40,984 nucleotides of DNA, taken from a virus. Shown piece by piece: positions 1 through 36,596 of this stretch (position 1 is the first letter of the stretch; each line of letters opens with the position of its first letter). The stretch is taken from positions 1 through 40,984 of the IMG/VR virus record IMGVR_UViG_3300019458_000015. One strand, 5' to 3'. The notes under the pieces were generated by a model. The model was not told where the DNA came from. It saw only the letters and a program-made list of their open reading frames with translations, and ran no database searches. The translations under genes and the position numbers were made by a program.

Positions 1-123
1 ACAGCGTCATGGCCCGGCTCATCGCCGCCAGAAAGAACCTGATCAGTTGGATCAGGGTCACGCCATACCCCGAACCAGGGCCGCTGGCCACCGACCGAGA
101 GGATCTCGCCTGATGAAGATTGC
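1..123. repeat. Left copy of a 123-bp terminal direct repeat, identical to 40862..40984. Signature of a circular or circularly permuted 40,861-bp genome.
   Basis: Direct comparison shows bases 1-123 equal 40862-40984. The repeat lies inside coding sequence: the 3' end of CDS 40777..40974 and the first codons of CDS 113..1054. Confidence 0.95.
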
Positions 124-1054
124 CTACAGGCGGAACACGCTCGGGGCTGCGTCCCTGGCAATGGTCCGGACGGCGAACCAGATCATCGCCGAGTATCAGG
201 CGCTCGGCTACACCCTCACGCTCCGGCAGCTCTACTACCGGTTCGTGGCGGCGTCTCACATCCCCAACCAGGACACGGAATACAAGAGGCTGGGGGATAT
301 CATCGGCAAAGCGCGTTACTGCGGGCTGATCGACTGGGACGCCATCGAGGACCGCACCCGGAACAGCCGGGCGAACCCGCACTGGGAAACGCCCGGAGAC
401 ATCATCGACGCGGCTGCCCAGTCCTACGCCGTGGACAAGTGGGCTCGGCAGCCCCGCCGGGTCGAGGTCTGGGTGGAGAAAGAGGCGCTTGCCGGGATCG
501 TCGGGCAGGTAGCCGAAGAGATGGACGTTGCCCACCTCGCCTGCCGGGGCTACATGTCCGCTTCGGAGATGAGGGTGGCGGCGATCCGGCTTATGCGCTA
601 CCAGCGGGCCAACCAGAAGCCGGTCATCATCCATCTCGGCGACCACGACCCGAGCGGGATCGATATGACGCGGGACATCGAGGATCGGCTGGCCGAGTTC
701 CACAAGCACCACGGCTACGACGCCCCGACCGTCAACCGGATCGCTCTCAATATGGACCAGGTCCAAAGCTACAACCCGCCACCGAACCCGGCGAAGTTGA
801 CCGACAGCCGCTGCAGTTCCTACATGGACCGGTTCGGCGATGAGAGCTGGGAGCTGGACGCCTTGCCCCCCGACGACCTCGCCAACCTCATCCGTTCGAG
901 CATCGGAGACTACCTCGATGTGGATCTCTACGCCGAGGACAAGTTGACCGAGGATGAGGGCCGCGAGCAGTTGCTGGCAGCGGCGGCTCGGTGGGACGAG
1001 GTGGTTGCGGCGCTGGGCTCCCCATCTACAAGTTGCGCCGAGGAGACACAATGA
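113..1054 (+). CDS. Stand-alone Spo11/Topoisomerase VI subunit A-like protein (5Y-CAP + Toprim; Mini-A-like).
   Basis: ORF 47..1054 trimmed to the ATG at 113, which overlaps the upstream stop as TGATG. The motifs occur in Topo VIA order: TLRQLYYRFV (YY of the CAP domain), VWVEKEALAG (Toprim Glu), IIHLGDHDPSGIDM (Toprim DxDPxG). Confidence 0.6.
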   Translation: MKIAYRRNTLGAASLAMVRTANQIIAEYQALGYTLTLRQLYYRFVAASHIPNQDTEYKRLGDIIGKARYCGLIDWDAIEDRTRNSRANPHWETPGDIIDAAAQSYAVDKWARQPRRVEVWVEKEALAGIVGQVAEEMDVAHLACRGYMSASEMRVAAIRLMRYQRANQKPVIIHLGDHDPSGIDMTRDIEDRLAEFHKHHGYDAPTVNRIALNMDQVQSYNPPPNPAKLTDSRCSSYMDRFGDESWELDALPPDDLANLIRSSIGDYLDVDLYAEDKLTEDEGREQLLAAAARWDEVVAALGSPSTSCAEETQ

Positions 1055-1242
1055 GAGAGAGCCAATACCAACACCTGGTCAGCGCCAGCCAGCACCTCTG
1101 GCACTACCTGTCCGACTGCCGCGAAGGCGAGCGCATCCTGCCCGGCATCGAGAAAGCTCACGCAGCCGTGCGGCGCCAGCTCGCGAGGCTCGACAAGGAA
1201 CGCGCCGGGCTCGCGCCCTGTGCTCCAGGCAAGAAGCGATGA
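1051..1242 (+). CDS. Hypothetical 63-aa protein.
   Basis: ATG at 1051 is preceded by GAGGAGACACA and overlaps the upstream stop (ATGA). Third-codon-position GC is high. Confidence 0.5.
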   Translation: MRESQYQHLVSASQHLWHYLSDCREGERILPGIEKAHAAVRRQLARLDKERAGLAPCAPGKKR

Positions 1243-1334
1243 CGGGCGGCGATGAAGCAGATCAGCCAGAGCCAGACGGCCACCAGCAGGATCACGCACC
1301 ACACCGTCAGCCAGCGCTCGGTATCGTCGGTCAT
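1158..1334 (-). CDS. Small single-pass membrane protein (58 aa), possibly holin-like or an exclusion protein.
   Basis: ATG at 1334 overlaps the stop of the upstream TPR-like gene (ATGA). A strong hydrophobic helix WLTVWCVILLVAVWLWLICFIAA is present. The first 30 codons have very high GC3. The 3' tail overlaps convergent CDS 1051..1242. Confidence 0.4.
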   Translation of the reverse strand: MTDDTERWLTVWCVILLVAVWLWLICFIAARHRFLPGAQGASPARSLSSLASWRRTAA

Positions 1335-1726
1335 TGCTTCCGGCTCTCCTCGACTTCCGCCTGGGTGAGGCCACGCTCGGTCATTTGGGCTCCTTGATGG
1401 CGAAGAGTTCGAATTTGGTCTAGAAGGGACCATAGTTCTTCGCGCAACTCGGGCGGTGGGTTGCCAGTAAGCGCCATGTGAGCGAGCCTTTCGGCTTCGG
1501 CCGAGTCCCCGATATCAAGGGCGAGGTTGGCGGCACTCCGATACAAGATCGTTCGGGTGGGCTCAAACTCAGGTTTCCCTCTGAATACCTCCGCAGCGGT
1601 CCTCTCTAATAGGAACGCCTCGTAGAAATACTTGTGGGCAACGTCGCGATCACCTCGCTTTCGGGCAAGAAGGGCGAGGTCCGTCAATTCCATCGCCTTG
1701 TTATGACGAGACTGAGCACTTGCCAT
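1331..1726 (-). CDS. TPR-like helical repeat protein (131 aa).
   Basis: Complete ORF with paired amphipathic helices (AHKYFYEAFLLE, ILYRSAANLALDIG, AERLAHMAL). Its 5' half has visibly lower GC than the rest of the genome. Confidence 0.5.
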   Translation of the reverse strand: MASAQSRHNKAMELTDLALLARKRGDRDVAHKYFYEAFLLERTAAEVFRGKPEFEPTRTILYRSAANLALDIGDSAEAERLAHMALTGNPPPELREELWSLLDQIRTLRHQGAQMTERGLTQAEVEESRKQ

Positions 1727-1727
1727 G

Positions 1728-2195
1728 TCAGTTCTGATGCTCCAGGCTGGCGATCCTGTCCTTGAGTTCCGCGATCTGCTCCCCGTTGTGGACGACGTCG
1801 CGCTGGAGCCCGGCCAATTCCACGCGGCACAAGAGGTGTTCCTCGTTGAACCGCTTGACCTCGGCGAGACGCTCTTTCTCCACTGTCTCTAGCTGCCCCC
1901 GCAGCCTGTCGATCGTGGAGCGGTAGTGCTCGCGGATCTTCTCCTCTCGTTGCTCCTCGACCGCGTCCTGGGCGGCCTGGCGGCGGTCCAGCTCGTCCTG
2001 CCTGGCGTCGAATTGGGCGGTGATGGCGAGCACCTCGGCCGCGCTGGGATTGGGCGGGAGTTGATTGGAGAGCCTATCCTGCCGCCGCTCGCGGTCCAGG
2101 CGGTCACGACGCCTCGTCCACCAGGTGAATCCGTGCCGGATAGCCCACTGCAGGCCGAGGGCTGTGGCGATCGCGGCGAATGTCGGGCCATCCAT
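1728..2195 (-). CDS. N-terminal hydrophobic segment plus charged coiled-coil protein (155 aa).
   Basis: Complete ORF. The N-terminus is FAAIATALGLQWAIRHGFTWW, followed by an R/E/Q-rich heptad-like region. It follows a 185-bp intergenic gap. Confidence 0.55.
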   Translation of the reverse strand: MDGPTFAAIATALGLQWAIRHGFTWWTRRRDRLDRERRQDRLSNQLPPNPSAAEVLAITAQFDARQDELDRRQAAQDAVEEQREEKIREHYRSTIDRLRGQLETVEKERLAEVKRFNEEHLLCRVELAGLQRDVVHNGEQIAELKDRIASLEHQN

Positions 2196-2201
2196 AACGC
2201 G

Positions 2202-2207
2202 ATTGTA
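2202..2207 (-). promoter_or_regulatory. TACAAT 6 nt upstream of the ATG at 2195, giving a possible leaderless transcript of the accessory cassette.
   Basis: The - strand reads GAGGGATACAATCGCGTTATG. Confidence 0.25.
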
Positions 2208-2220
2208 TCCCTCTGCGCAG

Positions 2221-2329
2221 CGGCCCCGGCCGCTCGGTTAGGGGCTCCGAGGCCAGGTGGCCGGGGGCTGCGCTGCCGGGTGGGCGGACCGGGTTAAGGG
2301 CCCCTGCATTGCCTGCCCCGCCCGACACC
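2221..2329 (+). repeat. Diverged copy (E0) of the two-hairpin intergenic element. It is in + orientation inside a - strand gene region.
   Basis: The blocks GGCCCCGGCCG, GGCCGGGGGCTGCGCTGCCGGG, TGGGCGGACCGGGT and CCCCGCCCGACACC are collinear with E2/E5. It lacks AGGAG. Confidence 0.5.
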
Positions 2330-2380
2330 TAATAATTCTATCTCCGGCCGGGGACGGCGACGCCTGCTGGAGACGGAAGG

Positions 2381-2965
2381 TCACGCATCCTGTCGGAACT
2401 CCCCAGCTCGCAGCCGGTCGAGGATCTCATGCTGCGGGTCGTCGGCCGCGAGGGGCCGCTCGCACATCTCCGCGTACTCCGGGTCGGCCTGGCGGGCGTC
2501 GGTCGCTCGCTGCTGGATATCGTGCACCCAGCCGCCCACCGAGACGCACCCCTCATCCTCGATCGCGGCCATCCGCGTGAGCCAGCCTGGGTCGTTGGCC
2601 AGCCTGTCGGCCAGCCGGCCCAGCGCCGCCTTGAGGTCGACCTGGCGCTCCGGCAGCGGGCCGTCCCACTCCTCGCCGGTGCGCAGATCCTCGACACAGG
2701 CATATGCCTCGCCCGATGGCCGGATGCTGACCTCAATGTCGAACCCTCCGGTGTGCCATTCTAGCTGCACCCCACCGCACGACGTCGGCACCACCTGCGG
2801 TGCGGGGGCATCCGGCCGCATCACCAGGCAGAGCAGTTCCATCGCATGGCGCACGGCCTCGGGCTGGATCGGCAGCGCCCCGTAGGAGTTCCAGTCGGCC
2901 TTGAGGTCCAGCAGCTCACTCAGCGCCTCCCTGGTAGGCTGCATCCAGCGAGACTGGCAGCTCAT
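2381..2965 (-). CDS. Hypothetical protein (194 aa).
   Basis: Complete ORF. Its start overlaps the portal stop (ATGA). Confidence 0.6.
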   Translation of the reverse strand: MSCQSRWMQPTREALSELLDLKADWNSYGALPIQPEAVRHAMELLCLVMRPDAPAPQVVPTSCGGVQLEWHTGGFDIEVSIRPSGEAYACVEDLRTGEEWDGPLPERQVDLKAALGRLADRLANDPGWLTRMAAIEDEGCVSVGGWVHDIQQRATDARQADPEYAEMCERPLAADDPQHEILDRLRAGEFRQDA

Positions 2966-4875
2966 CTCCTCTGCGACGTCCTCGCCGTGGGCCGACCGCC
3001 TGACGCCTGCTGCGGAGCAGCGCGTTGTAACGTGGATTGGACCCGCGCCAGACGCTCCAGGTTCTCCAGGTCGCTCCGGCTGTCGACGTCATCCTGGCTC
3101 GGCATCGGCGCCGGTTCGGGCTCGCCTGGCTGCAGCGCCGCCTGCTGATCCGCCATCATCGCCTCTTGTTCGGCGGCGGCCACCTGGTCGGCCTGGATCT
3201 GCGGCAGCGCCTTCTGGATGGCGTCCAGCAGCCACTGCTCGTTCATCTCGCGGAAAAACTCCATCTGGAGCGGCAGCGGCAAGTTGAAGATGCCCGAGGC
3301 CATGTAGTCCATCAGCCTCTGCCGCTTGGCGCTGTCGGTGTCGTTGACACTGTCCGCCAGGTCGACGACCACGTCCCGGTCGCCGATGTCGGCGCCCATG
3401 ATCGCCATCACCTGCTGCGCCCGGTCGCGCCCGAACGTCGAGATCAGCCTGGGCTCACGGTAGAGCTGAACTATGTTGACTAGCGCGTGCCTGGCAACGC
3501 GTTCCAGCGCGGCCCGGCCGAGCATCGCCGGCACGTGGAGCCTACTGTCGTCCTGGTCCTGCAGCAGCCCGATGGCGATGCCCGAGCGGACCCCGGTCGG
3601 CACCTGCGCGTTGCTCACCTCGTGCTGCCCCACCACCTGCTGCATCGCAGCCCGCATCATATCGGGCATTCCGATCACCTGTGCCGGGAGCGGCGGCGGC
3701 GTGAACACCTCGGGCTTGTAGGGGTAGTTGTAAGGGATGCGGATGTCCGGGGACGTGCCGATCTCATCCGCGTTGACCCCACTGGCGTTGGGAACCAGCC
3801 AGCCCAGGTTGCCGTGCAGCCGCACGTTGTTGGCGATGCTCGACTGGCTGCGGTTAAGCTCGCGCTGGAAGTCGATCACCATCTCAACCAGCCCCGTCGG
3901 CCACATCCGGTGCGGAACCAGGCGCCACGGGCTCATCGTCACCGGGATCTCGCCGTGGGGGTCCGGGAGCTGGCCGGACTCCCACAGCACGATCCGCTGT
4001 GACGTGATCGCCATCCGGCCCTTGGGCATCCGCTTCGACGGCCGCTCATACTGAAAGAGCAAGGTCGCACACCCCTCGTCGAGCGGAGGGCTGCCACTGT
4101 CGCGGCCGGGGATGAGGTAGCCGAGCGCATCCTCGGACCGCGCGCTGTCGGGCTTCACCTGCCGCCCCACGGCGCCGAACATATCCCGTATCCACCCGAG
4201 GCTGTGCCTGCTCGCGATGATGACCCAGGACGCGTCATCGTAGTCATCCACCGGCTCCGGGAACGTCTGCAGAGGCGTCAGCACGCGGGCGCACTGGTCT
4301 CCCACCGGCGCCAGCATCGCCGTGGGCATTCCAGTGGTCGGGTCCAGCGACGGGACGCGACGCATAATCGACGGGTCCCAGTAGTCGTGGTAGAACGCGC
4401 ACCCGAACACCCCCCGGCTCACATCGGCGAAGTATTCTTTACGCTCCATCTTGTCGAGCTTCCACCAGTGCTCCAGGGTGGCGCTCCCCAGGTTGGCGGC
4501 GTCCATATCCTCCGGCTCGCTCGTGTTCGCCAGGCAGCGCGGCATCGACCGGGTCCGCGAGAGTTTCGCCGCCATCGTGTCGATGTAGCCGGTAACCTGG
4601 TTGTCGGTCAGCCGGGTGCGCCAGCTCGGGATACGGTCCTGGTCGACCAGGCGCTTGGCGGCAGGGTCCCACCGCCGCCACTGCTCACCGACGTAGAACG
4701 CCAGGCAGGTCGCCCAGGTGCGCAGCATCGGCTGCTTGCTGGCCCTCGACCACTCATATCGCTTCTGGACCAGGTCCGCGAGCGACCCCTCGCCTACAGC
4801 GTCAGGCGGCTCGCTCCGGCTGGTGGTCGTCGGCATACTCGTCCTCGAAGGCGCCGCGCTCGTGGATACGCGCAT
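2962..4875 (-). CDS. Portal protein (putative).
   Basis: A 637-aa ORF downstream of the large terminase in the same operon, with size and position typical of a portal. An alternative start at Met14 (4836) has the better-spaced GAGGA. Confidence 0.65.
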   Translation of the reverse strand: MRVSTSAAPSRTSMPTTTSRSEPPDAVGEGSLADLVQKRYEWSRASKQPMLRTWATCLAFYVGEQWRRWDPAAKRLVDQDRIPSWRTRLTDNQVTGYIDTMAAKLSRTRSMPRCLANTSEPEDMDAANLGSATLEHWWKLDKMERKEYFADVSRGVFGCAFYHDYWDPSIMRRVPSLDPTTGMPTAMLAPVGDQCARVLTPLQTFPEPVDDYDDASWVIIASRHSLGWIRDMFGAVGRQVKPDSARSEDALGYLIPGRDSGSPPLDEGCATLLFQYERPSKRMPKGRMAITSQRIVLWESGQLPDPHGEIPVTMSPWRLVPHRMWPTGLVEMVIDFQRELNRSQSSIANNVRLHGNLGWLVPNASGVNADEIGTSPDIRIPYNYPYKPEVFTPPPLPAQVIGMPDMMRAAMQQVVGQHEVSNAQVPTGVRSGIAIGLLQDQDDSRLHVPAMLGRAALERVARHALVNIVQLYREPRLISTFGRDRAQQVMAIMGADIGDRDVVVDLADSVNDTDSAKRQRLMDYMASGIFNLPLPLQMEFFREMNEQWLLDAIQKALPQIQADQVAAAEQEAMMADQQAALQPGEPEPAPMPSQDDVDSRSDLENLERLARVQSTLQRAAPQQASGGRPTARTSQRR

Positions 4876-4893
4876 ACTCCGCCTCTTCGTCCA

Positions 4894-5172
4894 TTATGGT
4901 CGGCACCTGGGGCACGGTGTCCTCGTCTCTCTGGCGTGGAGCAGCCTGGCTAGCTCCAGCGCCGTCTCGCCGTCGATGACCCCGCCGATGAGATCGACGA
5001 GGCCAGTGCTCCAGACCTCCATCGTCAGGCTCATCGTGTCCCCTCGCTCCAGCCTGGCCAGAAGTGGCTGAGTCGGGAACCTGCAGCGCGAGCAGCTATC
5101 AGGCGTGGTGTCGGTCCAGCCCAGGCGCAGCAGTTCCGCGTGCAGAGCCCTACCGGCGTCCTCTGTGGTCAT
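4894..5172 (-). CDS. Small CxxC...CxxC protein (92 aa).
   Basis: Complete ORF with an ATGA overlap to the upstream gene. Contains CSRC and CPRC pairs. Confidence 0.5.
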   Translation of the reverse strand: MTTEDAGRALHAELLRLGWTDTTPDSCSRCRFPTQPLLARLERGDTMSLTMEVWSTGLVDLIGGVIDGETALELARLLHARETRTPCPRCRP

Positions 5173-5555
5173 TCTGCTCGCTCGCTGAAACGGGCAGCGG
5201 TGCCGTCAAGGACGCTCGCGGTCCAGCGGACCATCTGTTCCTTGAGCTGGGTGCCTGGCCGCTCGTCCGTTTCGTAGATGATCTCCTGGGCGATGTGGTC
5301 GTCGACGCCAAGGTGTCGCGCGAATACCTCCATGTCGAATGGGTCCGCGCCGACCTGGCCGCCTTCCTCCACGCTCATGTGCAGCTCCGTGGTCAGACCC
5401 CGGAGCTTCTCGACGGCGTCCTCTCGCGACAGTCCCTGCTCCATCTCCCGGTGGACGTAGAGCGCCCCGAGCGTGCAGACGCAGCCCTCGGCGTCAACGA
5501 CGGCGTCCTGGATGATCCGGTCTTCCTGCTCGATGGCATCACGCAGCTCGATCAT
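5169..5555 (-). CDS. Hypothetical acidic protein (128 aa).
   Basis: Complete ORF with ATGA overlaps at both ends. Confidence 0.6.
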   Translation of the reverse strand: MIELRDAIEQEDRIIQDAVVDAEGCVCTLGALYVHREMEQGLSREDAVEKLRGLTTELHMSVEEGGQVGADPFDMEVFARHLGVDDHIAQEIIYETDERPGTQLKEQMVRWTASVLDGTAARFSERAE

Positions 5556-5812
5556 GTGGTCTCTCCCTCTGTGGGGCAGGGATTCTCCGCGAGCCAGCCC
5601 ACGAATTCATCGACTAGCCCCACTCGATACTCCGGGAGTGCCTGTAGATGCCTCTCTCCTCGCTTGATGTCGTCGATCCGGCGCAGCACCGCGTCTCTCC
5701 ACGCATCCCGGCGGAAACGGAGGGCCTCGACGCGTTTCTCGTCCACTCGCCGTGCCAGGCGGAGGACCAGGTCCGAGAACTCCGCGTCAGTGAGCGGGCT
5801 ATCGGCCGACAT
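5552..5812 (-). CDS. Hypothetical protein (86 aa).
   Basis: Complete ORF. Its start is overlapped by a 20-codon mini-ORF that carries the only strong SD in the region (see findings). Confidence 0.5.
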   Translation of the reverse strand: MSADSPLTDAEFSDLVLRLARRVDEKRVEALRFRRDAWRDAVLRRIDDIKRGERHLQALPEYRVGLVDEFVGWLAENPCPTEGETT

Positions 5813-5878
5813 AGTTCCTGATCGACCCGATGATGAGTCGCTCGCGCTGTCGTGTGGTCATGCTTCCTCCTGGTCCCG

Positions 5879-7375
5879 TCACTCATACCCGTGCTTGGAT
5901 TGCTGGAACCGCTCGTAGGCACGCGTTGCTGCACGTGCGGCTCGGGGGCTCTCGACCGGCTTCTCACGGAGTGCGACATCGTCCTCATTGAAATAGTATC
6001 GCGTTACGTCCATACAGTGGTTGTCCGCATCGCTCGGATGCTCCGGCGCAGCATTCTCCAGCCCGGCCAGGCCAGAGCGCTGGACCTTGTAGCTCCAGTT
6101 CTCCGCCTCCCACAGCCAGGACTTGCAGTGGTCGCAGATCATCAGCCGGTCCGCCGCGAGCGCCCTTTTGACACGCAGCGCACCGGGATCGCCATTATTT
6201 CCGGGCCGGGGGACGAACCAGGATGCGCCAATTGATAGCGCAGCGAGCGTGAACTCTTCGGCGTCCGATGGTGTCTCTTGCCCGACCGATGTGTTGTGCA
6301 GATTGAACGCGGCCGGGTCCATTATTACGTCAACGTCTGGCCCGCCGAGCATCTGCCACTGTGCGTGGAGCATCTGAATATGCTGCTCGGGACGCCACAA
6401 CGCGCGATAGTGCTCGTCGACGAGGTAGGAGATGCTCTCCCGGTCGCGGGCGAACCAGAGAGCGGCCGTCGGATTGCGATACCCAGGGTCGATCATCAAT
6501 CGCCAGCGCCAGTCGAGCGGCGGCGCGAACGGCGCGATGATGTGGCGGTCGTAATCTAGCTCGGAGAGCACCAGTCCGGACAGCTCCGCCATCTCGCCTT
6601 CGAGGCGGACCCGACGCTCTTCGCTCGTATACTCGGACGCCATCATATCGAGCGCGCCCTCTGGCAAAAACGCGTTGTCAACCGAGCGCAATTTGAAGGT
6701 CTCGATGGCAGCGTCGGGGTCGCGCCTCTTGCGTAATAGAGTACGGGCGACCTGGGACCGACCCTCCAGCGATAGGATCGGGGTGAAAGTCATCATCCAC
6801 GTCCCGCGCACGTCGGCCAGGCGGGCCAAACAGCTCGACCAGGTGAGGTAGCGCGTCGGCTCCTCGTCACACCAGATGTGGTCAACCTGGTGGCTCTCAA
6901 AAGCGAGCGGGTCCTGGTCGTACGATTTGAATACGACGCGGCAGCCGTTGCGCAGGCAGAGCGTCCGCGACGCCATCGAGTAGCTGCGGGACCAGCTCCC
7001 GCCGATCAAATTGGACCGAGGCATGAACCGCTTGATGGCCTCCAATTGAACGTGCGGCCTCGTAGGTTCGCCTGGTTTGCTCACCTGGCCCGAGGCGTCC
7101 GGCAGCTCCTGCGACAGGCACCAGATCAGCCTCGCCCGCCGGAAGCGACCCGGCTCGCGGTGGGCGGCGATCATACAGCAACGCACTGCCCCAGCCACCG
7201 TTTTGCCGGAGCGGTTGCCGCCTCGGATGATGACGCCGGGCTTGCGACACAGCACAGCGCGCTGCTGCGCCCTGTTGGCGGGCGACCACCAGGCCAGCGG
7301 GTCCTCGACGGCCCTCTGCTGGATCTCGCCGAGCAGGATCAGGCGGCGCTGCTCCTGCTGCTGCGCCGCGCTCAT
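5879..7375 (-). CDS. terL: Terminase large subunit.
   Basis: Walker A GGNRSGKT, Walker B-like HIWCDEEP, and C-terminal nuclease-type motifs MIDPGYRNP and DADNHCMDVTRYY. 498 aa, directly after a small HTH protein. Confidence 0.9.
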   Translation of the reverse strand: MSAAQQQEQRRLILLGEIQQRAVEDPLAWWSPANRAQQRAVLCRKPGVIIRGGNRSGKTVAGAVRCCMIAAHREPGRFRRARLIWCLSQELPDASGQVSKPGEPTRPHVQLEAIKRFMPRSNLIGGSWSRSYSMASRTLCLRNGCRVVFKSYDQDPLAFESHQVDHIWCDEEPTRYLTWSSCLARLADVRGTWMMTFTPILSLEGRSQVARTLLRKRRDPDAAIETFKLRSVDNAFLPEGALDMMASEYTSEERRVRLEGEMAELSGLVLSELDYDRHIIAPFAPPLDWRWRLMIDPGYRNPTAALWFARDRESISYLVDEHYRALWRPEQHIQMLHAQWQMLGGPDVDVIMDPAAFNLHNTSVGQETPSDAEEFTLAALSIGASWFVPRPGNNGDPGALRVKRALAADRLMICDHCKSWLWEAENWSYKVQRSGLAGLENAAPEHPSDADNHCMDVTRYYFNEDDVALREKPVESPRAARAATRAYERFQQSKHGYE

Positions 7376-8011
7376 CTAGGCGTCCTCGCTCTCCTGCGCC
7401 AGGCCCTGCAGCACCTCGGCAAACTCGACGTCCGGGATGTCGTCAGGGTCGCGTAGAGGCAGCGGTGGTAGCTGGACCTCGACGCCCAGGCTGCGCAGCT
7501 CCGTGACCAGGTCGCCATCGCTCATCGTGGCTCGCTCGGCGGGCTCGCTGTCCTCGACGCCGACGTAGGAGAGGATGCGGGCAGCGGTCTCGCGGGTCTC
7601 TCGGACCCAACTAGGGGTTTGTTTCTCTTCCAACATTTTGACGGCAATTCGCAGCGCTTTATAGAGCGCGTCGAGCGCCTCAGGGACTGTTTTTGCCGTT
7701 TGCTCCTGGACATACAGGCGAGCGGTCTCGGCGCGGATAGCGCGGATCTCGTGCAGCCACCGGTAGATGGTGGCGCGACTGACGCCGTATCGGCGCGCCA
7801 TATCCTCCGCACGGAGGCTGCGTCCGGCCCGCCAGTCGGCGGAAACCAATTTTCGAAACTCCGCCATCGACAGGGCGCGGGGCCGACCACTGGCGAGCGG
7901 CGAGAGTGGGCGGATCGCCGCCCAGCCATCGTCATCGTCCTCTAGGGGGCTGACCACGGGCGAGAGATAGGGGTCGCGCTGGGGCACGTAGGTCTCATCC
8001 ATCTCATCCAT
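7376..8011 (-). CDS. Terminase small subunit-like HTH DNA-binding protein.
   Basis: Immediately upstream of terL (TAG then ATG). Helix-turn-helix RRYGVSRATIYRWLHEI. Acidic N- and C-termini. Confidence 0.55.
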   Translation of the reverse strand: MDEMDETYVPQRDPYLSPVVSPLEDDDDGWAAIRPLSPLASGRPRALSMAEFRKLVSADWRAGRSLRAEDMARRYGVSRATIYRWLHEIRAIRAETARLYVQEQTAKTVPEALDALYKALRIAVKMLEEKQTPSWVRETRETAARILSYVGVEDSEPAERATMSDGDLVTELRSLGVEVQLPPLPLRDPDDIPDVEFAEVLQGLAQESEDA

Positions 8012-8019
8012 ACCCCAGG

Positions 8020-8028
8020 ATTATCCCA
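8020..8028 (-). promoter_or_regulatory. Extended -10-like element (TGgGATAAT) 8 nt upstream of the terS-like ATG. Implies a leaderless or near-leaderless start.
   Basis: The - strand reads TTTGGGATAATCCTGGGGTATG. There is no good -35. Confidence 0.3.
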
Positions 8029-8074
8029 AATCCGGTCGCGGTGGGCGACGACGTTGTCAGGAGCCTGGTCAGGC

Positions 8075-15237: not shown

Positions 15238-15497
15238 GCAGTCTGGAGCAGGCCGTTGTAAAGGCCATCCTAGGGAGGTTGCCGTCGGTATTCCGCGACG
15301 GGTTCACCTACGGGGTCGCCTGGGAAAACGGTCCCGGTGACACCCTGATCGTGGGCTTCTACGCCACCAACAACGGCGCCATCGTGAGTGCCGTGTGGGG
15401 CGACGGTTTCTTCGCCAGGGACAGTGGAGCCTGGCCTCCCTGGGTCAGACAGGCAGCCGAATGCCTGGCTCGCGCCGAGGGCCTCATCGTCGCCTGA
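15234..15497 (+). CDS. Hypothetical protein (87 aa), member 3 of the triplet.
   Basis: ATGA overlap. C-terminus CLARAEGLIVA resembles that of member 1. Confidence 0.55.
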   Translation: MSSLEQAVVKAILGRLPSVFRDGFTYGVAWENGPGDTLIVGFYATNNGAIVSAVWGDGFFARDSGAWPPWVRQAAECLARAEGLIVA

Positions 15498-15510
15498 CTA
15501 CCAGAAGGAG

Positions 15511-15516
15511 TATAAT
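15511..15516 (+). promoter_or_regulatory. Perfect TATAAT 6 nt upstream of the ATG of the HTH gene, giving a possible leaderless transcript.
   Basis: AAGGAGTATAATCCGGGTATG. There is no -35 and no TG extension. Confidence 0.25.
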
Positions 15517-15522
15517 CCGGGT

Positions 15523-15741
15523 ATGGACCAGACCGAGGAGATCCTCACCACCGAGGAGGTCGCGCGAGTGATCGGCATCGGGCAGCGCCGGGTGCTGGTG
15601 CTCATCCAAACGGGCCGGTTCCCCGGCGCGTATCGCAAGGGACGGATGTGGTTGGTGCCTCGCAAGGCAGCAGCCAACTACCGCAAGCTCGACACCAGGG
15701 GTCGCCCCATCGGAGGCCCCTACTTTCAGGAGACACAATGA
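15523..15741 (+). CDS. Excisionase/MerR-type helix-turn-helix DNA-binding protein.
   Basis: LTTEEVARVIGIGQRRVLVLIQTGRFPGAYRKGRMWLVPRKA matches the HTH_17/excisionase-family pattern. TATAAT lies 6 nt upstream of the ATG. Confidence 0.6.
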   Translation: MDQTEEILTTEEVARVIGIGQRRVLVLIQTGRFPGAYRKGRMWLVPRKAAANYRKLDTRGRPIGGPYFQETQ

Positions 15742-16580
15742 CAGAGACACAGGAGAGACAGGAGAGCGCGGCCATCGAGGTTGCTGCTCCCACCAACGGC
15801 GCCCTGGCCCTGCCCGCTCACCCAATCCGGTGGTCGGCGGACCAGATCGCCGTGATGCAGCGGACCATCTGCTCGGAGCTGACGCCGGGCGAGCTGAAGT
15901 TGCTCCTCTACCGGGCCCAGGCGCTGAGCCTTGACCCGCTGGCGGGACAGATATTCGGCATCCCGCGCGGCCAGGGCAGCGACCGGAAGCTCACCATCCA
16001 GGTTGGCATCGAGGGCCTGCGGCTCATCAGCCGACGCACCGGACTGGATGCCGGGAAGACGGCGCCAGAGTGGTGCGGCGCCGACGGATGCTGGCTGGAT
16101 TTCTGGCCGTTCGACTATCCGCCCCTCGCGGCGAGGGTCGGGGTCAGGATCGTCGGGCAGGAGCACATCACGTGGGGCGTCGCCCACTACCGCGAATACG
16201 TCCAGCGGGACAGATCCGGTAAGGTCGTCGCGATGTGGGAGCGGATGCCCGCCAACCAGCTCGCGAAGTGCGCCGAGGCACAGGCACGACGCGCGGCATT
16301 CCCGGCAGAGCTGGCCGGGATCTACTGCCCCGAGGAGATGCCCGTGATCGACGTGACCATCGTCGAAGAGGGGCGGCAGGCACTGCCCGCACCGCGCCCG
16401 GCGACGCGCCCCGCTGCCAGCACGGCAGTCAGCGGCTGCTCGGGTTGCGGGGATCGGATCAGCCCGGCCGTGGCGAAGTTCAGCACGGAGAAGTGGGGCC
16501 GCGTGCTCTGCCTCTCGTGCCAGCAGGCCGCTAAGGACCAGGGGCAGGCACCTCCCGCAGTGGAGCAGGCCAATGCCTGA
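15738..16580 (+). CDS. recT: RecT/Bet-family single-strand annealing recombinase with a C-terminal CxxC...CxxC zinc ribbon.
   Basis: LLLYRAQALSLDPLAGQIFGIP, IQVGIEGLRLISRRTG and ANQLAKCAEAQARRAAFP match conserved RecT blocks. The C-terminus carries CSGCG...CLSC. Confidence 0.75.
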   Translation: MTETQERQESAAIEVAAPTNGALALPAHPIRWSADQIAVMQRTICSELTPGELKLLLYRAQALSLDPLAGQIFGIPRGQGSDRKLTIQVGIEGLRLISRRTGLDAGKTAPEWCGADGCWLDFWPFDYPPLAARVGVRIVGQEHITWGVAHYREYVQRDRSGKVVAMWERMPANQLAKCAEAQARRAAFPAELAGIYCPEEMPVIDVTIVEEGRQALPAPRPATRPAASTAVSGCSGCGDRISPAVAKFSTEKWGRVLCLSCQQAAKDQGQAPPAVEQANA

Positions 16581-16917
16581 AGAAAGGCATATCCTGATCT
16601 CATCCCAGCCACCTCCACTGGCAGCAGGCAATGTTGCGCCGTTCGGTCCGCTCGTGGTCCTGATGTTCGACGGACCGCTCCAGCCAGTCGCCTATCCGGC
16701 CAAGCTGGCGGTGGAGTTGGGTGTCAGGCTCATCCGCTGCGCCGTGCTGGCCGAACGCCGCCTCGACGAGGCGGTGCATTCCGGGGACGAAGCGCCCTGC
16801 GCCATCGACGAGATCGGCAAGGCGCGGGAGGCAGCCCTGGAGCGTGCCGTGGCAGAGAGCGAGGCGCAGGCCCAACGTCCCGAGATCGCCCTGCCGCCGG
16901 GCGTGAGGCTCAACTGA
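16573..16917 (+). CDS. Hypothetical protein (114 aa).
   Basis: Complete ORF overlapping both neighbours by a few nt. Confidence 0.5.
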   Translation: MPEERHILISSQPPPLAAGNVAPFGPLVVLMFDGPLQPVAYPAKLAVELGVRLIRCAVLAERRLDEAVHSGDEAPCAIDEIGKAREAALERAVAESEAQAQRPEIALPPGVRLN

Positions 16918-17684
16918 TGCCCGAGGAGACAGCACTGGCCCCAGTGGACCTCGACCAGGGCTACCTGGAAGATCCGCTCGGGACGTGGCGGGAGCTGCGG
17001 GTGCTGGGCTGGAGCGAGGAGCGCCTGGCTGAATTCCACGCCAGCGGGCTGGTGATCGACGACAGGGAACCCTGGCGCCCTCGCGACCTGGGAGCCCTGG
17101 AGTGGCTCATCGGCAAGATCCGCAGCCTGGAAGACCGGCGGGGGAGGGTCGCCGAACAGGCGGCCCGCCTCCGTGGGCAGCTCACGTCCAGCATCGACTA
17201 CCTGACCGGCATCCTCGAAAGCCCGGAGACCGCCGAGCTGCTCGGGAGCCTGCTGCCCAAGCGGCCCGCTGGCACCTACATCCGCAAGTCGATCGACACC
17301 CTGGAGGGACGCGTTACCCTGCATAAGAGCAGCGCCCGGCTCCAGATCGACGACCGGGACGCTGCGCTGCTCTACGTGGCGGAGCACGCCCCTGACGAGG
17401 TGCGCGACAAGAGCATCCGGGCGACCCTCACCCAGCAGCTCTGGGGCGACCTGGCGATGGAGTATGTCGGCTGGTCGACCCAGGGACAGCGCGAGGGAGA
17501 CAAGGGGACGGCCGTCAAGGTGGACCTGATGCTCGACGGCTGCAAGGAGTGGCTGCTCGGCCAGGTCACGCCCGCGACCACTCCCGAGGGAGAGGTCTAC
17601 GCCCACATCTGCCCGCCAGGGTGCCGGTGGAGCGAGGAACGCGACGACGTAGTGCTGGAAAAGAGAAAGGAGATCGAGCGATGA
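16917..17684 (+). CDS. Hypothetical protein, tentatively Mu Gam-like / Gp157-like recombination accessory.
   Basis: A coiled-coil segment is followed by RKSIDTLEGRVTLHKSSARLQIDDRDAALLYV, reminiscent of the Gam-like core. It sits between recT and rusA. The functional call is weak. Confidence 0.3.
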   Translation: MPEETALAPVDLDQGYLEDPLGTWRELRVLGWSEERLAEFHASGLVIDDREPWRPRDLGALEWLIGKIRSLEDRRGRVAEQAARLRGQLTSSIDYLTGILESPETAELLGSLLPKRPAGTYIRKSIDTLEGRVTLHKSSARLQIDDRDAALLYVAEHAPDEVRDKSIRATLTQQLWGDLAMEYVGWSTQGQREGDKGTAVKVDLMLDGCKEWLLGQVTPATTPEGEVYAHICPPGCRWSEERDDVVLEKRKEIER

Positions 17685-18112
17685 GGGCCCTCGTCTACGG
17701 CCCGCCGCCCACGATGGGCAACAAGGTCGCCTGCGTCACCCGCGACGGCAGGGCCTTCGTCCGTGAGCGGAACGACAACGGGCTGCGGAGCTGGCAGGGG
17801 GCGATGCGCGAAGCGATGCTCGCCGACCAGCCCCCTGAGATGCCGCAGGACGGGATCGCCGTGGCCGTCACGGTCGTCGTGGCCCGGCCGAAAGGGCACT
17901 TCGGCAAGCGCGGGCTGCTGCCGTCCGCCAGGCGGGCCCCGACGGTCAAGCCTGACGCCTGCAAGATCCAGCGGGCGCTCTATGACTGCCTCTCGGGGAT
18001 CTGGTGCCCGGATGACAGCCACGTCATCCAGGTCCAGTTCGCCAAGCGGTATCAGACGCCCGGCGATCCCCTCGACCAGCCACGGGTCGAGGTCTGGGCA
18101 CTAGCACTGTGA
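17681..18112 (+). CDS. rusA: RusA-family Holliday junction resolvase.
   Basis: VKPDACKIQRALYDCLSGIWCPDDSHVIQVQFAKRY matches the RusA core pattern (kPD..n..K...D.l......DDs.v......K). Confidence 0.65.
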   Translation: MRALVYGPPPTMGNKVACVTRDGRAFVRERNDNGLRSWQGAMREAMLADQPPEMPQDGIAVAVTVVVARPKGHFGKRGLLPSARRAPTVKPDACKIQRALYDCLSGIWCPDDSHVIQVQFAKRYQTPGDPLDQPRVEVWALAL

Positions 18113-18435
18113 CCAAGTGTGGCCCGCGCGACGCGCAGGTCGTGCTTGACAACAGCGGCACCTGGACGGCGCTCTGCTACGGCAGGCCGACCATCTGCCC
18201 AGACACGAGGCGGGAATTCTGGCCCCACGGGGCCTTCACCATCGGAGAGATGCGACCAGGCCGCAACGAGAAGTGGGCCTGGAACGCTCTCGACGCGTCC
18301 GGCTGGGGCTACAACTCGGCCGGGCTGCTCGTCTGCCCAGACTGTCTCGATGCCGAGACCGAAGGGGCGCGGCGGGCAAAACTACAGCGGGCACGGCCGC
18401 AGGAGACACGAGACACGAATGATGACCGACACTGA
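18109..18435 (+). CDS. Hypothetical Cys-containing protein (108 aa).
   Basis: GTG start overlaps the rusA stop (GTGA). Contains a CPDC motif. Confidence 0.5.
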   Translation: MTKCGPRDAQVVLDNSGTWTALCYGRPTICPDTRREFWPHGAFTIGEMRPGRNEKWAWNALDASGWGYNSAGLLVCPDCLDAETEGARRAKLQRARPQETRDTNDDRH

Positions 18436-18601
18436 AGAGCAGCTCAACGTTCGCGAAGTGCTCTGCCAGGCGCGAGAACTGAAGCTAGCTGTCTTCTTCT
18501 ACGCCAACCTGGCCATCCTGGTCCTCAACGCGTGGCTGCTGTGGACCGCCTGGATCGCCTGGCGGAACGCAGTGGCGATGACGGGGGTCGGGACTGGCTA
18601 G
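18419..18601 (+). CDS. Small membrane protein (60 aa).
   Basis: ATG at 18419 follows AGGAGACACGAGACACGA. One hydrophobic helix LAVFFYANLAILVLNAWLLWTAWIAW. Its stop shares the CTAG at 18598-18601 with the convergent gene. Confidence 0.5.
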   Translation: MMTDTEEQLNVREVLCQARELKLAVFFYANLAILVLNAWLLWTAWIAWRNAVAMTGVGTG

Positions 18602-21600
18602 AGCCCCCCGAGGGAACCGAGCCCGAGGCCACTGCCCCGGCGCCTGATCCCGATCCCGCGTAGGTATCGATCCCTCGCCGCAGCGCGAGCGTCCTTGATG
18701 GCATCCTCAAGGCGCTCGCGTTTTTTTTCGTCTGGCTGCTGGCCGTAGCCCGGCTTCGCCATCTCGCGCTCGATCTTTGTGCGCACGGCCGACCCGACCT
18801 CGGTCGTCATCTGCCGGAGCTGGGTCTGGGTGAGGCGTCGCTCTTCCCGGCCTTCCTTGAGGTCCGGCCGCAGGGACGACGGCCGGATGCCCAGGCGGGC
18901 CAGCTCGCGGTCTACCGGCTGCGCGTTGGCCCGTGATGCCCGCAGCGGAGAGAGGGCCGCGATCCCGCTCGGGCTGCGCGGGATCGGTCGCCCCAGGTTA
19001 TCCACCCTGGCAGGCAGCTTCTGCGAGAGACCAGGGATGCCCGACTGGATGTATTTCAGGGTCCGCTGGCTGCCCTCGGCGATGCCGTCGAACAAGCTCT
19101 CCGCCTTGCTCTCGTCCAGCTTCGTCTCCCGGAGGTTCGGATCGGTGATGTTCGTGACAAGCCGCTGTGCAGAGACCAGCGGCACGAACCCGCTGGCGGC
19201 ACGCTCGAAGAACCGCTGCCCCCATGTTTCCGGATCGCTGATCGCATTGTTCAGGTCGCGCAGCCCTGTGAGTGCGGTCGTGTCCACCATCGCGCTGCCG
19301 AGCGATGCCCCCACCGTCGCGATCCACTCGCTCGTCGGCTCCTTCTCGTTGCTCTCCCCCCGCTTCGCGAAGGCGGCAGCGATCACCAGCGGCTGTGCCA
19401 GTGGACCGAGGCGCAAGAACTCGACCCACTGGTTTCCGATCTTGACCGCCCACGGCTTCTTGCCCAGGCGGTAGAACTCTTCGCGGTCGGTGGCGTTCTT
19501 CGGAGCGGGCCCGGTGATCCCGCCAGTGGCGCCGTAGGCCAGCAGTGGGATGAGCGCCGCTGTCCCCAGCACGGCACGAGCGGCCAGATCGCTCATCGCC
19601 GCAGTGCCCCGCACGTCCCGCCGCAGGGCACCGACGATCAGCCCGGCTGGGGTGAACTCCAACCCCGCCTTCTGCAGGTAGTAGTTGGTCCGAACGAACG
19701 GCAAAATGACCCGCAGCGGTTTGGCTCCGCCGAGCACGTCCTCTCCAAGATTGGCGAACGCCATGATCCGGCGGAGGACCGGGTCGTCCCGGCCGGATCG
19801 TGACGATACGAACACGCCGTGACTGGCGGCGGCGTCGGCCTGCTCCAGCATCTGCTCCGTAGGTTCGCGCAGCAAGTGCTGGTAGCGCGAGGCGCGGGCG
19901 GCGCCGGAGAGCCCTTCCTGGGTGGCCTGACGGGCAGCCAGGGTGTGCAGCTCGGACGAGCGGATCATCTCCCGGTTGATGGCGTCGACGGCGGCCCGCT
20001 GCCGGAAGCTCTGGTTCCACGGGTTCCACCGGCCGCCCCGGAACTCGCGTCCGCGGCCTGCAGTATCGAGGCGCTCGGCCTGCTGCCGGGTCATGCCTTC
20101 CCGCATCACCTCGGCGGCATCCGAGAGACCGCGTCGGAACCCGACAGCCATTCCCACGATGCCAGGAACCACCTCGGCCATCTCGTAGCCGCGCGCCTGG
20201 CCGGTGACCCTGGCACGGCCCGCCTCGATCCCGGCCCGCAGCGGCGCCACGAGGCCGCGCTCCACCACGTTGTAGGCCAAGGTGCCGAGGAAGTCCTGGG
20301 CGGCGCCCACGGGGCTGGAGAGCAGGTTCGCCTGCTGATAGGATCGCAGGCGCTCGAAGAGCGGCACCTCGTTGGTCCGCCGCAGCAGCCGGGTCAGCTC
20401 GTAGGGGTCGTCGCCTGCACGCGACAGCGCCGCCAGCTCCTGCTCCAGTAGCTCGCGGTCGCCAGCAGCCCGGCGAAGCTGCTCCAGGGCCCGCATCCGA
20501 ATGTCCCGGTTCGGGTCGCGGGATGCACGCGCCATCTCCTGGAACTGGCGCAGGGCCCGGCCCGCCTCGGCGGTAGCGCCACGCAGCGCCAGGTCAACCA
20601 CCTGGAACTCCCGGAGTGCCGTCGCCACCCGCAGGTAGTCGGTCTCACCCCGCTCCGACCGGTCGAATGCCTGCTGGGCACGCCGGAACTTCTCACCCGC
20701 GGACAAGAGAGCCTCGCGCAGCGCGAAGATTTCACTGGCGTTCAGCGCCGTCCCCGGCCGGAGGTTCAGCTTGTCGACGTTGATCCCGAGGCGACGGCTC
20801 TCCTGGCGCATCTGGTCCATCGACTGGACGTTGCGGCGCTGCAGCTCGATCATCGCGCCCCGCTCCTCCACCTGCTGCAGCAAGAGGCTCCGGACCTGCT
20901 CCCCGTTCTCCAGGTTCTCGATGCGGATGTTCCCGGCGTAGGTCGGCTCGCCTTCCCCGGTCCGATACTCCTCGGGCGGCAGTCCGGACGGACGACGCTC
21001 CGGTATGGGGGTTCGCTCGATGGCGGTGCGGCCACCGGCTCGCGATGCGAACCGACCAGCGCTGTCGAGGATCTGCTGTCGCTGCTGCGGGGAGAGGCGC
21101 GACCACACCTGCGGGACGTCGCGGGCTACCCGGTCCAGGGCCTGCGCCGCCGTCATCCCGCCCTCGGCCAGGTAGTTACCGGCCAGCAGGGCCAGGTCCC
21201 GCAGTAACGCCGGGTCGACGCCGAGGCCGCCGGACATCAGGCCAGGAGACTTGATGCGGGCCAGGATGGCGGCCCGGTTGGCCCGGAGCTGTGCAATGGT
21301 CTTCTCGTAGCCCGGCGCCCCCTCGCCGCGCTCGGCGCCACGCCGGCCGCGCAATCTGGATGCTTCCGCTGCGTCTCCGGCAAGGTCAGCCGCTGCCGCC
21401 TGGTCATAGATCGCCTTGATCTGCGGGTCTCTGTCCGTGTAGGCCGAAATGTTGAGTTCCACGGTCCGCCGCCGCTCCTGCGCGATCCCCAGTGCGGCCC
21501 GGTGCATTCGGATCACCTGGTCGCGGGCGAGCTTGTTCCAGTGCGCGATCTCCTTCGACATCGCCTGTGCCCAATCCGGGAACTTGGAGACGCCGCGCAT

Positions 21601-25148: not shown

Positions 25149-25744
25149 CAGAACTTGATCCCGCGACCGATCCCGAAGCCGATACCAGGGGCCAGGCCGC
25201 CGATGAGGTCGCCAACCCCGAAACTCTGGGCAGCTTCCATCGCCGCAATCTGCTGCTCCAGCTCCTTCCTCCTCATCGCGATCTCGGCTGCGGTTGCACC
25301 CTGGCCTGACATCGACTGCGCCAGTTGGATTGCCGCCTGGCGGTAAGCATCCTGGCGGCGATCCTGCACGTCGTATGCCTGGCTCACCAGTCCTGCTCCA
25401 GCGTTCGCCCGCCCAGCCGCTGCCGTGCCGTAGGCCCCGGCCGCCATGCTGGAGTTGCCCATCCCGGAAGCCGCCATCCGGCGGGCGATGTCCGAGGTGG
25501 CTGCGTTGTAGCCCTGGCCGAGGGCCTCGGTGCGCGGGGCCAGGTAGGCCGAGAACCCCTCGGGCGAGAGTGGCTCGTTCTGCAGCCGCGTCAGGTCCCG
25601 CAGCTCGGCGCGGATCGCCTTGTTGCCGAGTTCGGAGTTCCGGCGGTAGCCGCTGGCGATCCCCGTTGCGCCGCCGTAGGGACGCGCGTTGCCACGTCCG
25701 CCTCCGCCGCCCATCCCCATCCCCATCGGATGCATCGGATACAT
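25148..25744 (-). CDS. Gly/Ala/Met-rich putative internal virion protein (198 aa).
   Basis: N-terminus is MYPMHPMGMGMGGGGG and C-terminus is GGLAPGIGFGIGRGIKF. Position is between the large tail protein and the 534-aa protein. Confidence 0.4.
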   Translation of the reverse strand: MYPMHPMGMGMGGGGGRGNARPYGGATGIASGYRRNSELGNKAIRAELRDLTRLQNEPLSPEGFSAYLAPRTEALGQGYNAATSDIARRMAASGMGNSSMAAGAYGTAAAGRANAGAGLVSQAYDVQDRRQDAYRQAAIQLAQSMSGQGATAAEIAMRRKELEQQIAAMEAAQSFGVGDLIGGLAPGIGFGIGRGIKF

Positions 25745-28158: not shown

Positions 28159-28499
28159 CCCAGCCTCGGGTGGAAGAAGGCTCGCTCTGGCGGCCCGGTG
28201 GGGAACGTCACTTCCTGGGCTGCCGGAGTGGTGCCTCGAATGCGGAGCAGGTATTCGCCAGGAAAGGTCAGGAACGGCGTCAAGAAGTCGGCGGCGATCC
28301 AGGTCCGTGACACCTCGCCATCGACAGCGGAGGTGATCGTTAGCGCGAAGACGTAGGTTGTCCCCGCCGTCAGGTGCTTCAGGACCAGAACGATGCTGGT
28401 CCACCCGGTCAGATTGATCGGCTCGCCGTCGGCCTTCAAGATCGCCCGGAAGGTCGGCTGCAGGTCCTGCAGGACCATCTCGAAGACATAGCTGGTCAT
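28155..28499 (-). CDS. Small beta-sandwich (Ig-like / BppU-N-like) tail protein (114 aa).
   Basis: ADGEPINLTGWTSIVLVLKH...DGEVSRTWIAADFLT...PGEYLLRIR...VTFP resembles N-terminal Ig-like tail-fibre domains. Confidence 0.4.
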   Translation of the reverse strand: MTSYVFEMVLQDLQPTFRAILKADGEPINLTGWTSIVLVLKHLTAGTTYVFALTITSAVDGEVSRTWIAADFLTPFLTFPGEYLLRIRGTTPAAQEVTFPTGPPERAFFHPRLG

Positions 28500-29116: not shown

Positions 29117-29117
29117 G

Positions 29118-29839: not shown

Positions 29840-29848
29840 CGTTTGCCT

Positions 29849-32111: not shown

Positions 32112-32121
32112 AGTGTCGCCC

Positions 32122-34154: not shown

Positions 34155-34176
34155 CTCTTACCCCTCCTGGGGATGA

Positions 34177-34204: not shown

Positions 34205-34225
34205 CCTTGGCTCGCCCCTCTGGCG

Positions 34226-35494: not shown

Positions 35495-35495
35495 G

Positions 35496-36580: not shown

Positions 36581-36596
36581 ACACATCCTTGCGGGC

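Follow-up and report, generated by a model that had tools for sequence, protein, structure and literature searches.

What might a tailed phage do with a protein that resembles the DNA-cleaving A subunit of topoisomerase VI when no B subunit accompanies it? The question is raised by a gene at the left edge of IMGVR_UViG_3300019458_000015, an IMG/VR virus record of 40,984 nucleotides (nt) that was analysed over its full length (positions 1 to 40,984, hereafter the window). A sequence-only reading of the window had described the gene as a stand-alone relative of Spo11 and of the topoisomerase VI A subunit (Topo VI-A, or Top6A), and had compared its product with the poorly characterised Mini-A class. 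The analysis presented here places the gene securely, by its sequence characters, within the already described Mini-A family. By analogy with Topo VI and Spo11, the protein most likely cleaves DNA, and probably reseals it, by way of a tyrosine, Tyr42, and with no need of ATP, during phage replication or recombination. Taken whole, that is, family membership together with a presumed Topo VI/Spo11-like chemistry and a role in replication or recombination, this explanation is assigned a probability of roughly 0.7.

A member of the Mini-A family

Mini-A proteins were defined (PMC7671362) as proteins of ~300 amino acids (aa) from viruses and proviruses that carry an RxxY/FY motif, a Toprim glutamate and a DxDxxG motif. 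Two further traits belong to that definition, namely a C-terminal T2BI box, xWELDAL, that separates the family from Topo VI and Topo VIII, and the lack of a Bergerat-fold partner. The product of the window gene is 313 aa long, with homologs mostly of 290–340 aa, and contains an RxxY/FY motif with its tyrosine, a Toprim E followed by DxDxxG, and an xWELDAL T2BI box (Table 1). It is encoded by a virus, with a P22-type portal, a large terminase, an SU10 adaptor, RecT and RusA encoded in the same genome, and no Bergerat-fold B subunit is encoded nearby. Membership is secure because every one of these sequence characters is present. Along its full length the protein also matches phrog_6247, "DNA topoisomerase" (E=9.9e-106), and it shares 48.4% identity (E=2e-69), across 88% of the query, with the protein of Pseudomonas phage NP1, the "Ppha" Mini-A exemplar in the Fig. 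2 alignment of Takahashi et al. (PMC7671362). The earlier comparison with the Mini-A class is thus upheld by all four motifs, by the similarity to NP1 and by the lack of a B subunit.

An open reading frame (ORF) arising by chance is excluded, on sequence grounds, because of this PHROG match, the more than 8000 homolog clusters in a metagenome protein database (closest relative, 69% identical) and the 11,903 representatives at 50% identity that an exhaustive profile search recovered at E≤1e-3 (2,786 of them at E≤1e-30). Within GenBank, 78 phage records hold a Mini-A homolog. The carriers include Pseudomonas NP1 and PaMx25, Xylella Sano, Roseobacter RDJL Phi 1, Brevundimonas Delta, Listeria LWP01 and Pseudanabaena Pam3, and Salmonella phages are also among them. 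The family was described in 2019/2020; PHROGs annotates it and reviews mention it, and the gene is not new in kind. Compared with the published Mini-A proteins (NP1 or PaMx25 gp51, PHROG 6247), it shows no difference in kind, the carrier here being an uncultured 40.9-kb phage of 67% GC with an O/DnaD-like initiator.

Conservation was assessed over 109 sequences, comprising the window protein and 108 representatives with a pairwise difference of more than 50%. The three motifs listed in the sequence-only reading, LRQLYYRF, VWVEKEA and LGDHDPSG, do occur in that order in the 313-aa product, at aa 37–44, 119–125 and 175–182. The reading had left the conservation of the presumed catalytic residues to be checked, and they proved nearly invariant. 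R38 and Y42 are each present in 108 of the 109 sequences, Y41 is either Y or F, and E122, K123, D177, D179, P180 and G182 occur in all 109. Mini-A thus fixes only the second aromatic residue of the RxxY/FY motif, and the same is true of Top6A and Spo11. A fourth motif, SWELDAL, was absent from the earlier list and is the most diagnostic of the four, with W246 found in 105/109 homologs and E247 and D249 in every one. Another block, NPPPNPAK-TDSR, is specific to Mini-A and has no described counterpart among the catalytic motifs of Topo VI; its K228 is universal (109/109), D231 and R233 are nearly so (108/109 and 107/109), and P222–P224 are invariant or nearly invariant.

Four homologs of 650–712 aa (P0293, P0304, P0351 and P0354) each contain an intein of ~360 aa. 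These inteins start with Cys, are of the LAGLIDADG type with a GLYLAEG block, and end in HN immediately before a C. Their insertion point, between VE and WVEK, falls within the Toprim glutamate motif and precedes E122 by two to three residues. Sites critical to the function of DNA-metabolism enzymes are typical places for an intein.

Some peculiarities of individual records were also seen. The RDJL Phi 1 homolog (locus 6956–7905) matches in two pieces, and its record shows a truncated 208-aa "DNA topoisomerase" and an antisense hypothetical gp27, which probably reflects a frameshift or a mis-annotation. Mini-A is also present in phages known or annotated for DNA hypermodification, including PaMx25 (Queuovirinae, queE) and Pam3 (aGPT-Pplase, Nmad5). 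Finally, a Foldseek search of BFVD returned no close homolog despite the 78 GenBank records, the best match being a 152-aa protein of 22% identity; BFVD may lack the family or model it poorly.

Relationship to Topo VI-A and Spo11

Placement of Mini-A in the wider Topo VI-A/Spo11 superfamily is supported only moderately, by comparison of profiles and of predicted secondary structures. A shallow hhalign comparison of 32 Mini-A with 30 archaeal Top6A sequences aligned the DxD region alone (E=0.022). With 109 Mini-A sequences set against 89 Top6A sequences plus yeast Spo11, a single collinear alignment of 196 columns was obtained (P=9.8e-4), in which TLRQLYY, VWVEKEA and LGDHDPSG of Mini-A are paired with STLREMYY, IAIETGG and FTDGDPWS of Top6A, respectively. 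Its score of 34.4 compares with 10.3 for the reversed alignment, with 16.2±2.8 (maximum 25.0) for 100 column shuffles, and with 26.0±2.3 (maximum 33.2) for 100 shuffles of 12-column blocks. The block shuffles keep the motifs and scramble their order, and the real score exceeds them; therefore, the order of the motifs contributes to the score. Searches with hmmsearch, in which the hidden Markov model (HMM) of each family was run against the sequences of the other, reached at best 8.2 bits versus 5.8 for decoys, a marginal enrichment.

The AlphaFold2 (AF2) model of Mini-A (pLDDT 87.5) has helices at residues 12–31, 37–46 and 54–69, followed by a beta-alpha-beta domain. The predicted fold begins with an N-terminal three-helix, winged-helix (5Y-CAP-like) unit that places Y42 on its second helix, and continues with a Toprim domain and C-terminal helices. 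Within the Toprim domain of the model, E122 ends the first strand and the DxD follows the third, which is the canonical layout. When the secondary structure was compared with that of an AF2 model of Top6A, agreement was 67% in the hhalign register and 30–48% when the register was shifted, and the Toprim domains matched almost element for element. At the level of profiles and predicted secondary structure, then, the 5Y-CAP plus Toprim architecture and the catalytic constellation are supported.

Three known systems provide the closest points of reference. Mini-A resembles Topo VI-A (M. jannaschii 1D3Y, M. mazei 2Q2E/9O0G) in how the catalytic R/Y, E and DxD motifs are ordered and spaced, in the T2BI glutamate, and in the succession of a winged helix and a Toprim domain. 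It differs in being ~70–100 aa shorter, without the N-terminal part that binds Top6B, in having no GHKL/transducer partner and no Pfam TP6A_N/Toprim match, and in possessing the extra NPPPNPAK-TDSR motif and C-terminal helices. Spo11 (8URQ) is likewise of the A-subunit type, and it cuts without ATP, in vitro without partners, and stays linked to the 5′ end (PMC11922746). However, Spo11 is eukaryotic, has TOP6BL and accessory proteins as partners in vivo, and clearly resembles Top6A in three dimensions (Foldseek 1e-12), which Mini-A does not. The plasmid-borne Topo VIII shares with Mini-A its carriage on mobile elements, the lack of the 5Y-CAP's N-terminal half, plus a related T2BI box (RVELNAM, as against WELDAL in Mini-A). 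Unlike Mini-A, it has a fused or adjacent B moiety with GHKL and transducer domains and is a demonstrated topoisomerase.

Search for a partner subunit

The sequence-only reading had stated that no GHKL ATPase gene is present in the 40.9-kb genome, and at the Pfam level this holds for every called protein: neither GHKL/HATPase nor transducer domains were found in any of them, whether in our own scans or in precomputed ones. The A2B2 arrangement of topoisomerase VI, with its tandem GHKL/transducer B subunit, is not what this genome encodes. The only ATPases that Pfam recognises in it are the large terminase and a MoxR-like AAA_5 protein. The gene for the latter is followed by that for a DUF2201_N/DUF2201 protein of the VWA type (the pair occupies 9852–12205 on the plus strand), and the family of this second protein, phrog_1314, is labelled "HNH endonuclease" in PHROGs, a label that looks mistaken.

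A conserved partner was also sought by all-versus-all clustering of ORFs of at least 50 aa from 80 IMG/VR loci containing Mini-A. No conserved "Mini-B" emerged from these loci, where no cluster occurred in more than 13 of the 80 save for shadow ORFs overlapping Mini-A itself. The recurrent neighbours, judged by eye from representatives, included integrase, SNF2/DEAD/UvrD-type helicases, DNA polymerases, primase-helicase, Cas4-like exonuclease and cI-like repressor. Two short ORFs that are coupled to Mini-A in the window, of 65 and 63 aa, had no family match in scans of the family libraries, and they are not conserved partners beside Mini-A in the 80 viral loci.

Genomic context

An early operon on the plus strand, 37247..1242, crosses the junction of the assembly, and Mini-A is its last gene but one. 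A self-match shows positions 1–123 to be an exact copy of 40862–40984. With this direct terminal repeat of 123 bp, the assembly is a circle or is terminally redundant, and 40,861 bp of it are unique. An independent ENA contig of 41,002 bp is uninterrupted across the window ends. The gene had been said to span the assembly junction; its start codon does lie within the repeat, as do the 113 nt at the 3′ end of the ORF before it, but of the Mini-A gene just the first 11 nt fall inside. The program-called ORF opens at TTG 47, and the homologs all begin at the methionine of ATG 113 (M1 and Y5 are invariant). The translational coupling previously proposed with the preceding ORF is also real, as a TGATG at 111–115 overlaps the stop codon of the 65-aa ORF (TGA, 111–113) with the start of Mini-A (ATG, 113–115). 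On the other side, the 63-aa ORF that closes the operon overlaps the Mini-A stop codon through an ATGA at 1051–1054.

The first gene of the operon encodes an O/DnaD-like replication initiator. Repeats occur within it at 37557–37721, where a (QS)12 linker is encoded by ~11 tandem GCCAGA hexamers, just upstream of which lie two 21-nt direct repeats. These repeats may represent an origin with iterons, as in lambda O, and they are the sole origin-like repeats; none of that kind, and no hairpin, adjoins Mini-A. A second plus-strand operon encodes an HTH_17 protein, RecT and RusA. The sequence-only reading had invoked recT and rusA, which were recovered (Table 1), together with a Gam-like gene, for which the family scans gave no match. 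It had further held that the phage lacks a polymerase, primase or helicase of its own; none was found among the scanned proteins, but the phage does encode the O/DnaD-type initiator.

Packaging appears to be of the headful type, given the P22-type portal and T4-type large terminase. Three large ORFs of the structural module have no Pfam match, namely one of 1648 aa at 18598–23544 (minus strand), one of 534 aa at 23544–25148, and one at 25744–28404 (minus strand) of 886 aa, or 804 aa as called. Together with the SU10-type adaptor and the P22-type portal, these ORFs point to a virion like that of podoviruses, in which the internal or tail proteins are giant.

In the annotated phages examined, Mini-A always lies within a module for replication and nucleotide metabolism. 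That of PaMx25 has an ATP-dependent ligase on one side and a Sak4-like annealing protein on the other, and a Cas4-type exonuclease, a helicase and a primase are nearby. The RDJL Phi 1 gene adjoins those for a DNA polymerase and a helicase, the Brevundimonas Delta gene comes after ThyX, and the LWP01 gene is upstream of a DNA polymerase. In Sano, as in the window phage, the early operon has Mini-A at its end.

Table 1. Mini-A, its motifs and other genes discussed here, with positions in the window
Feature	Position	Strand	Basis
Mini-A gene, 313 aa	113..1054	+	ORF and sequence; PHROG 6247, E=9.9e-106 over aa 1-298
LRQLYYRF, aa 37-44: R38 and putative catalytic Tyr42 (nt 236-238), RxxY/FY of type IIB A subunits	221..244	+	AF2-model helix 37-46; paired by hhalign with STLREMYY of Top6A
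VWVEKEA, aa 119-125: predicted Toprim glutamate E122 (nt 476-478), C-terminal end of strand 115-121	467..487	+	Paired by hhalign with IAIETGG of Top6A
LGDHDPSG, aa 175-182: predicted Toprim DxDxxG (D177, D179, G182), directly after strand 169-175	635..658	+	Paired by hhalign with FTDGDPWS of Top6A
NPPPNPAKLTDSR, aa 221-233 (NPPPNPAK-TDSR): invariant motif specific to Mini-A	773..811	+	Conservation in homologs
SWELDAL, aa 245-251: T2BI box, sets Mini-A apart from Topo VI and Topo VIII	845..865	+	Signature per PMC7671362
63-aa ORF downstream of Mini-A, final gene of the operon	1051..1242	+	Overlaps Mini-A stop
MoxR-like AAA_5 ATPase (phrog_1297)	9852..10997	+	Pfam/PHROGs
recT, second plus-strand operon	15738..16580	+	Family scan
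rusA, second plus-strand operon	17681..18112	+	Family scan
O/DnaD-like replication initiator, first gene of the Mini-A operon	37247..38170	+	phrog_9474, E=2.7e-23; phrog_1701, DnaD-like
65-aa helical ORF upstream of Mini-A	40777..40974	+	Gene call on ENA contig; 3′ end repeated at 1-113

Proposed mechanism

By analogy with the biochemistry of Topo VI and Spo11, Mini-A would work as a homodimer whose active sites are hybrid, an arrangement described in PMC12871325. The Toprim acidic residues E122, D177 and D179 would hold Mg2+, and Tyr42 would attack the DNA to give a 5′-phosphotyrosyl link and a free 3′-OH, all without ATP. Work with mouse SPO11 has shown that the protein by itself can make covalent double-strand breaks in vitro with neither a B subunit nor ATP (PMC11922746), and so cleavage by an A-type protein without a partner is possible.

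Restraint of this cleavage could be provided by R38 and E247, paired as a clasp. For Top6A of M. mazei, PMC13040014 describes an "electrostatic clasp" on cleavage between R102 of the RxxYY motif and the T2BI glutamate E342, with an E342Q variant that is hyper-cleaving. E247 is likely the equivalent of that glutamate, as judged by the correspondence of the motifs KxEQQxxA and SWELDAL, with no confident alignment between them. The retention of both R38 and E247 in Mini-A argues for controlled, probably reversible cleavage over the action of a free nuclease.

In the most probable of the roles considered, Mini-A would introduce a nick or a double-strand break, with the protein attached, into the circular DNA of the phage itself while this replicates. 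Replication that yields concatemers, either of the rolling-circle kind or dependent on recombination with RecT and RusA, would thereby be set off or kept going, and would feed headful packaging. This particular role, a programmed protein-linked break that drives the formation of concatemers for headful packaging, is put forward tentatively, at less than even odds. A fuller version is conceivable, in which Mini-A is a self-sufficient, ATP-independent breaking-rejoining enzyme, a B-less dimer restrained by its clasp, whose programmed, protein-linked breaks launch viral replication of the rolling-circle or recombination-dependent kind; it would be a viral analogue of Spo11 and possibly the ancestral state, although as a complete account this is doubtful. 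Two other roles are unlikely. The presence of a P22-type portal and large terminase speaks against the formation of genome ends by Mini-A, and the O/DnaD-like initiator that heads the same operon speaks against Mini-A as the sole replication initiator of the window phage.

Several observations weigh against the explanation favoured here. The profile placement in Pfam that the sequence-only reading had proposed as a check did not materialise: neither TP6A_N (PF04406) nor the TOP6A-Spo11 Toprim domain (PF21180), nor any other Pfam family, was matched at E≤10, and genuine Top6A proteins carry all three Pfam domains. Single-sequence searches of NCBIfam and of PDB sequences gave no match, nor did a search of the latter with an HMM built from 32 homologs, and the hhalign probability of the Mini-A/Top6A alignment is just 22%. 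A Foldseek search of the PDB with the Mini-A model returned no Top6A or Spo11 among its 50 best matches, the best of which (E=0.02) was Rossmann-like noise. In the control, the AF2 model of Top6A picked up both Top6A (1e-50 to 1e-22) and Spo11 (1e-12); therefore, Mini-A is more remote from Top6A than Spo11 is. The control recovered no other Toprim protein (human Topo II had E=0.12), and Foldseek in this use cannot see relationships at the depth of the Toprim superfamily. The structural expectation of the sequence-only reading was thus borne out in part, with the CAP-Toprim order of elements present in the AF2 secondary structure and Top6A/Spo11 not recovered in three dimensions. Overall, the sequence link of Mini-A to Topo VI-A is weaker than the literature suggests. 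On the functional side, a 5′ end blocked by protein would impede 5′–3′ resection by phage exonucleases, and the phage has its own origin-type initiator and terminase, such that initiation and end formation do not strictly need Mini-A. Literature searches found no functional study of any Mini-A, whether biochemical or genetic, and reviews and preprints up to 2026 term its function unknown.

Alternative explanations

The alternative that survives best is that Mini-A is an ATP-independent topoisomerase, a dimer that would cut and reseal DNA as a swivel or decatenase, relaxing supercoils ahead of forks or unlinking daughter circles. An enzyme of this kind would lessen the phage's dependence on host gyrase and Topo IV, and T4 and similar large phages do encode a type II topoisomerase of their own. 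The conservation of the full set of cleavage-religation residues, the R/E pair included, fits a reversible reaction better than it fits a one-way nuclease, and the replication-module context is constant. A further point in its favour is that Top6A E342Q is described in PMC13040014 as prone to nicking with Mg2+. However, a type IIB enzyme needs the ATP gate of its B subunit to keep its halves together when the DNA gate opens, and neither that gate nor a second one was found; relaxation by a Mini-A has not been reported in the literature. A swivel or decatenase role is rated almost as probable as the programmed break proposed above, and likewise at less than even odds.

A second alternative casts Mini-A as a rolling-circle initiator in the strict sense, which would nick a specific origin, remain bound to the 5′ end and free a 3′-OH primer in the manner of an HUH Rep or P2 gpA. 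The chemistry of a 5′-Tyr link and a free 3′-OH would suit it, and the idea has been proposed in the literature for the skuldviruses of Asgard archaea, which have no other replication gene. The window phage and most relatives, in contrast, possess other initiators or full replisomes, and no conserved repeat or hairpin adjoins Mini-A, the origin-like repeats being confined to the O-like initiator gene. An origin-specific role is accordingly improbable.

Comparably poor prospects attend a hydrolytic Toprim nuclease in the style of MksG/JetD or OLD, or an anti-host weapon, acting with no covalent Tyr intermediate to destroy the host chromosome or rival elements. To our knowledge, JetD and MksG do not rely on a conserved catalytic tyrosine, whereas Tyr42 of Mini-A is present in 108/109 sequences. 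Topo VI-A-like folds do act as plain nucleases in MksBEFG/Wadjet, according to PMC10123090 and PMC13040014, and MksG/JetD shares with Mini-A a Topo VI-A-like CAP plus Toprim module without a Top6B subunit. It also suits a nuclease that Mini-A has neither an ATPase nor a religation partner. However, MksG/JetD is a defence nuclease that belongs to a complex with an SMC-like ATPase, and Mini-A matched no PADLOC defence model. Both Y42 and R38 are essentially invariant (108/109 representatives), though needless for hydrolysis, and in the annotated phages examined the gene is found in replication modules and never in those for host takeover.

Lastly, a conventional type IIB enzyme with a B subunit ("Mini-B") that has diverged beyond recognition or comes from the host was left open by Takahashi et al. 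(PMC7671362), and many small uncharacterised ORFs surround the gene, the coupled 65-aa and 63-aa ones included, but it is highly improbable given that no neighbour family is conserved across the 80 loci, that no Bergerat-fold match exists among the genome's called proteins, that Mini-A is without the N-terminal segment that binds Top6B (PMC7671362), and that the presumably bacterial hosts rarely have Topo VI-B (in keeping with PMC11302465).

Implications for the Mini-A family

The window gene itself is a clean, typical example of Mini-A in a small genome; it introduces no new principle and is no more tractable than its homologs in cultured phages. What the analysis adds lies at the level of the family, namely the lack of a conserved partner, the inteins at the active site, the retained putative clasp residues and the negative Foldseek result. 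Several of these features are also handles for experiment, as the family has no adjacent conserved partner, carries inteins at the Toprim glutamate in some homologs, and retains an R/E pair that may control cleavage.

Mini-A is among the largest families of phage DNA-metabolism proteins without a known activity, with ~11,900 clusters at 50% identity. An activity for a lone protein of the Topo VI-A type would bear on how concatemers are made and how DNA topology is managed in tailed phages, and on the origins of Topo VI and Spo11. If Mini-A does break and rejoin DNA as proposed here, this family of ~11,900 clusters would represent a major overlooked class of initiators of phage replication and recombination.

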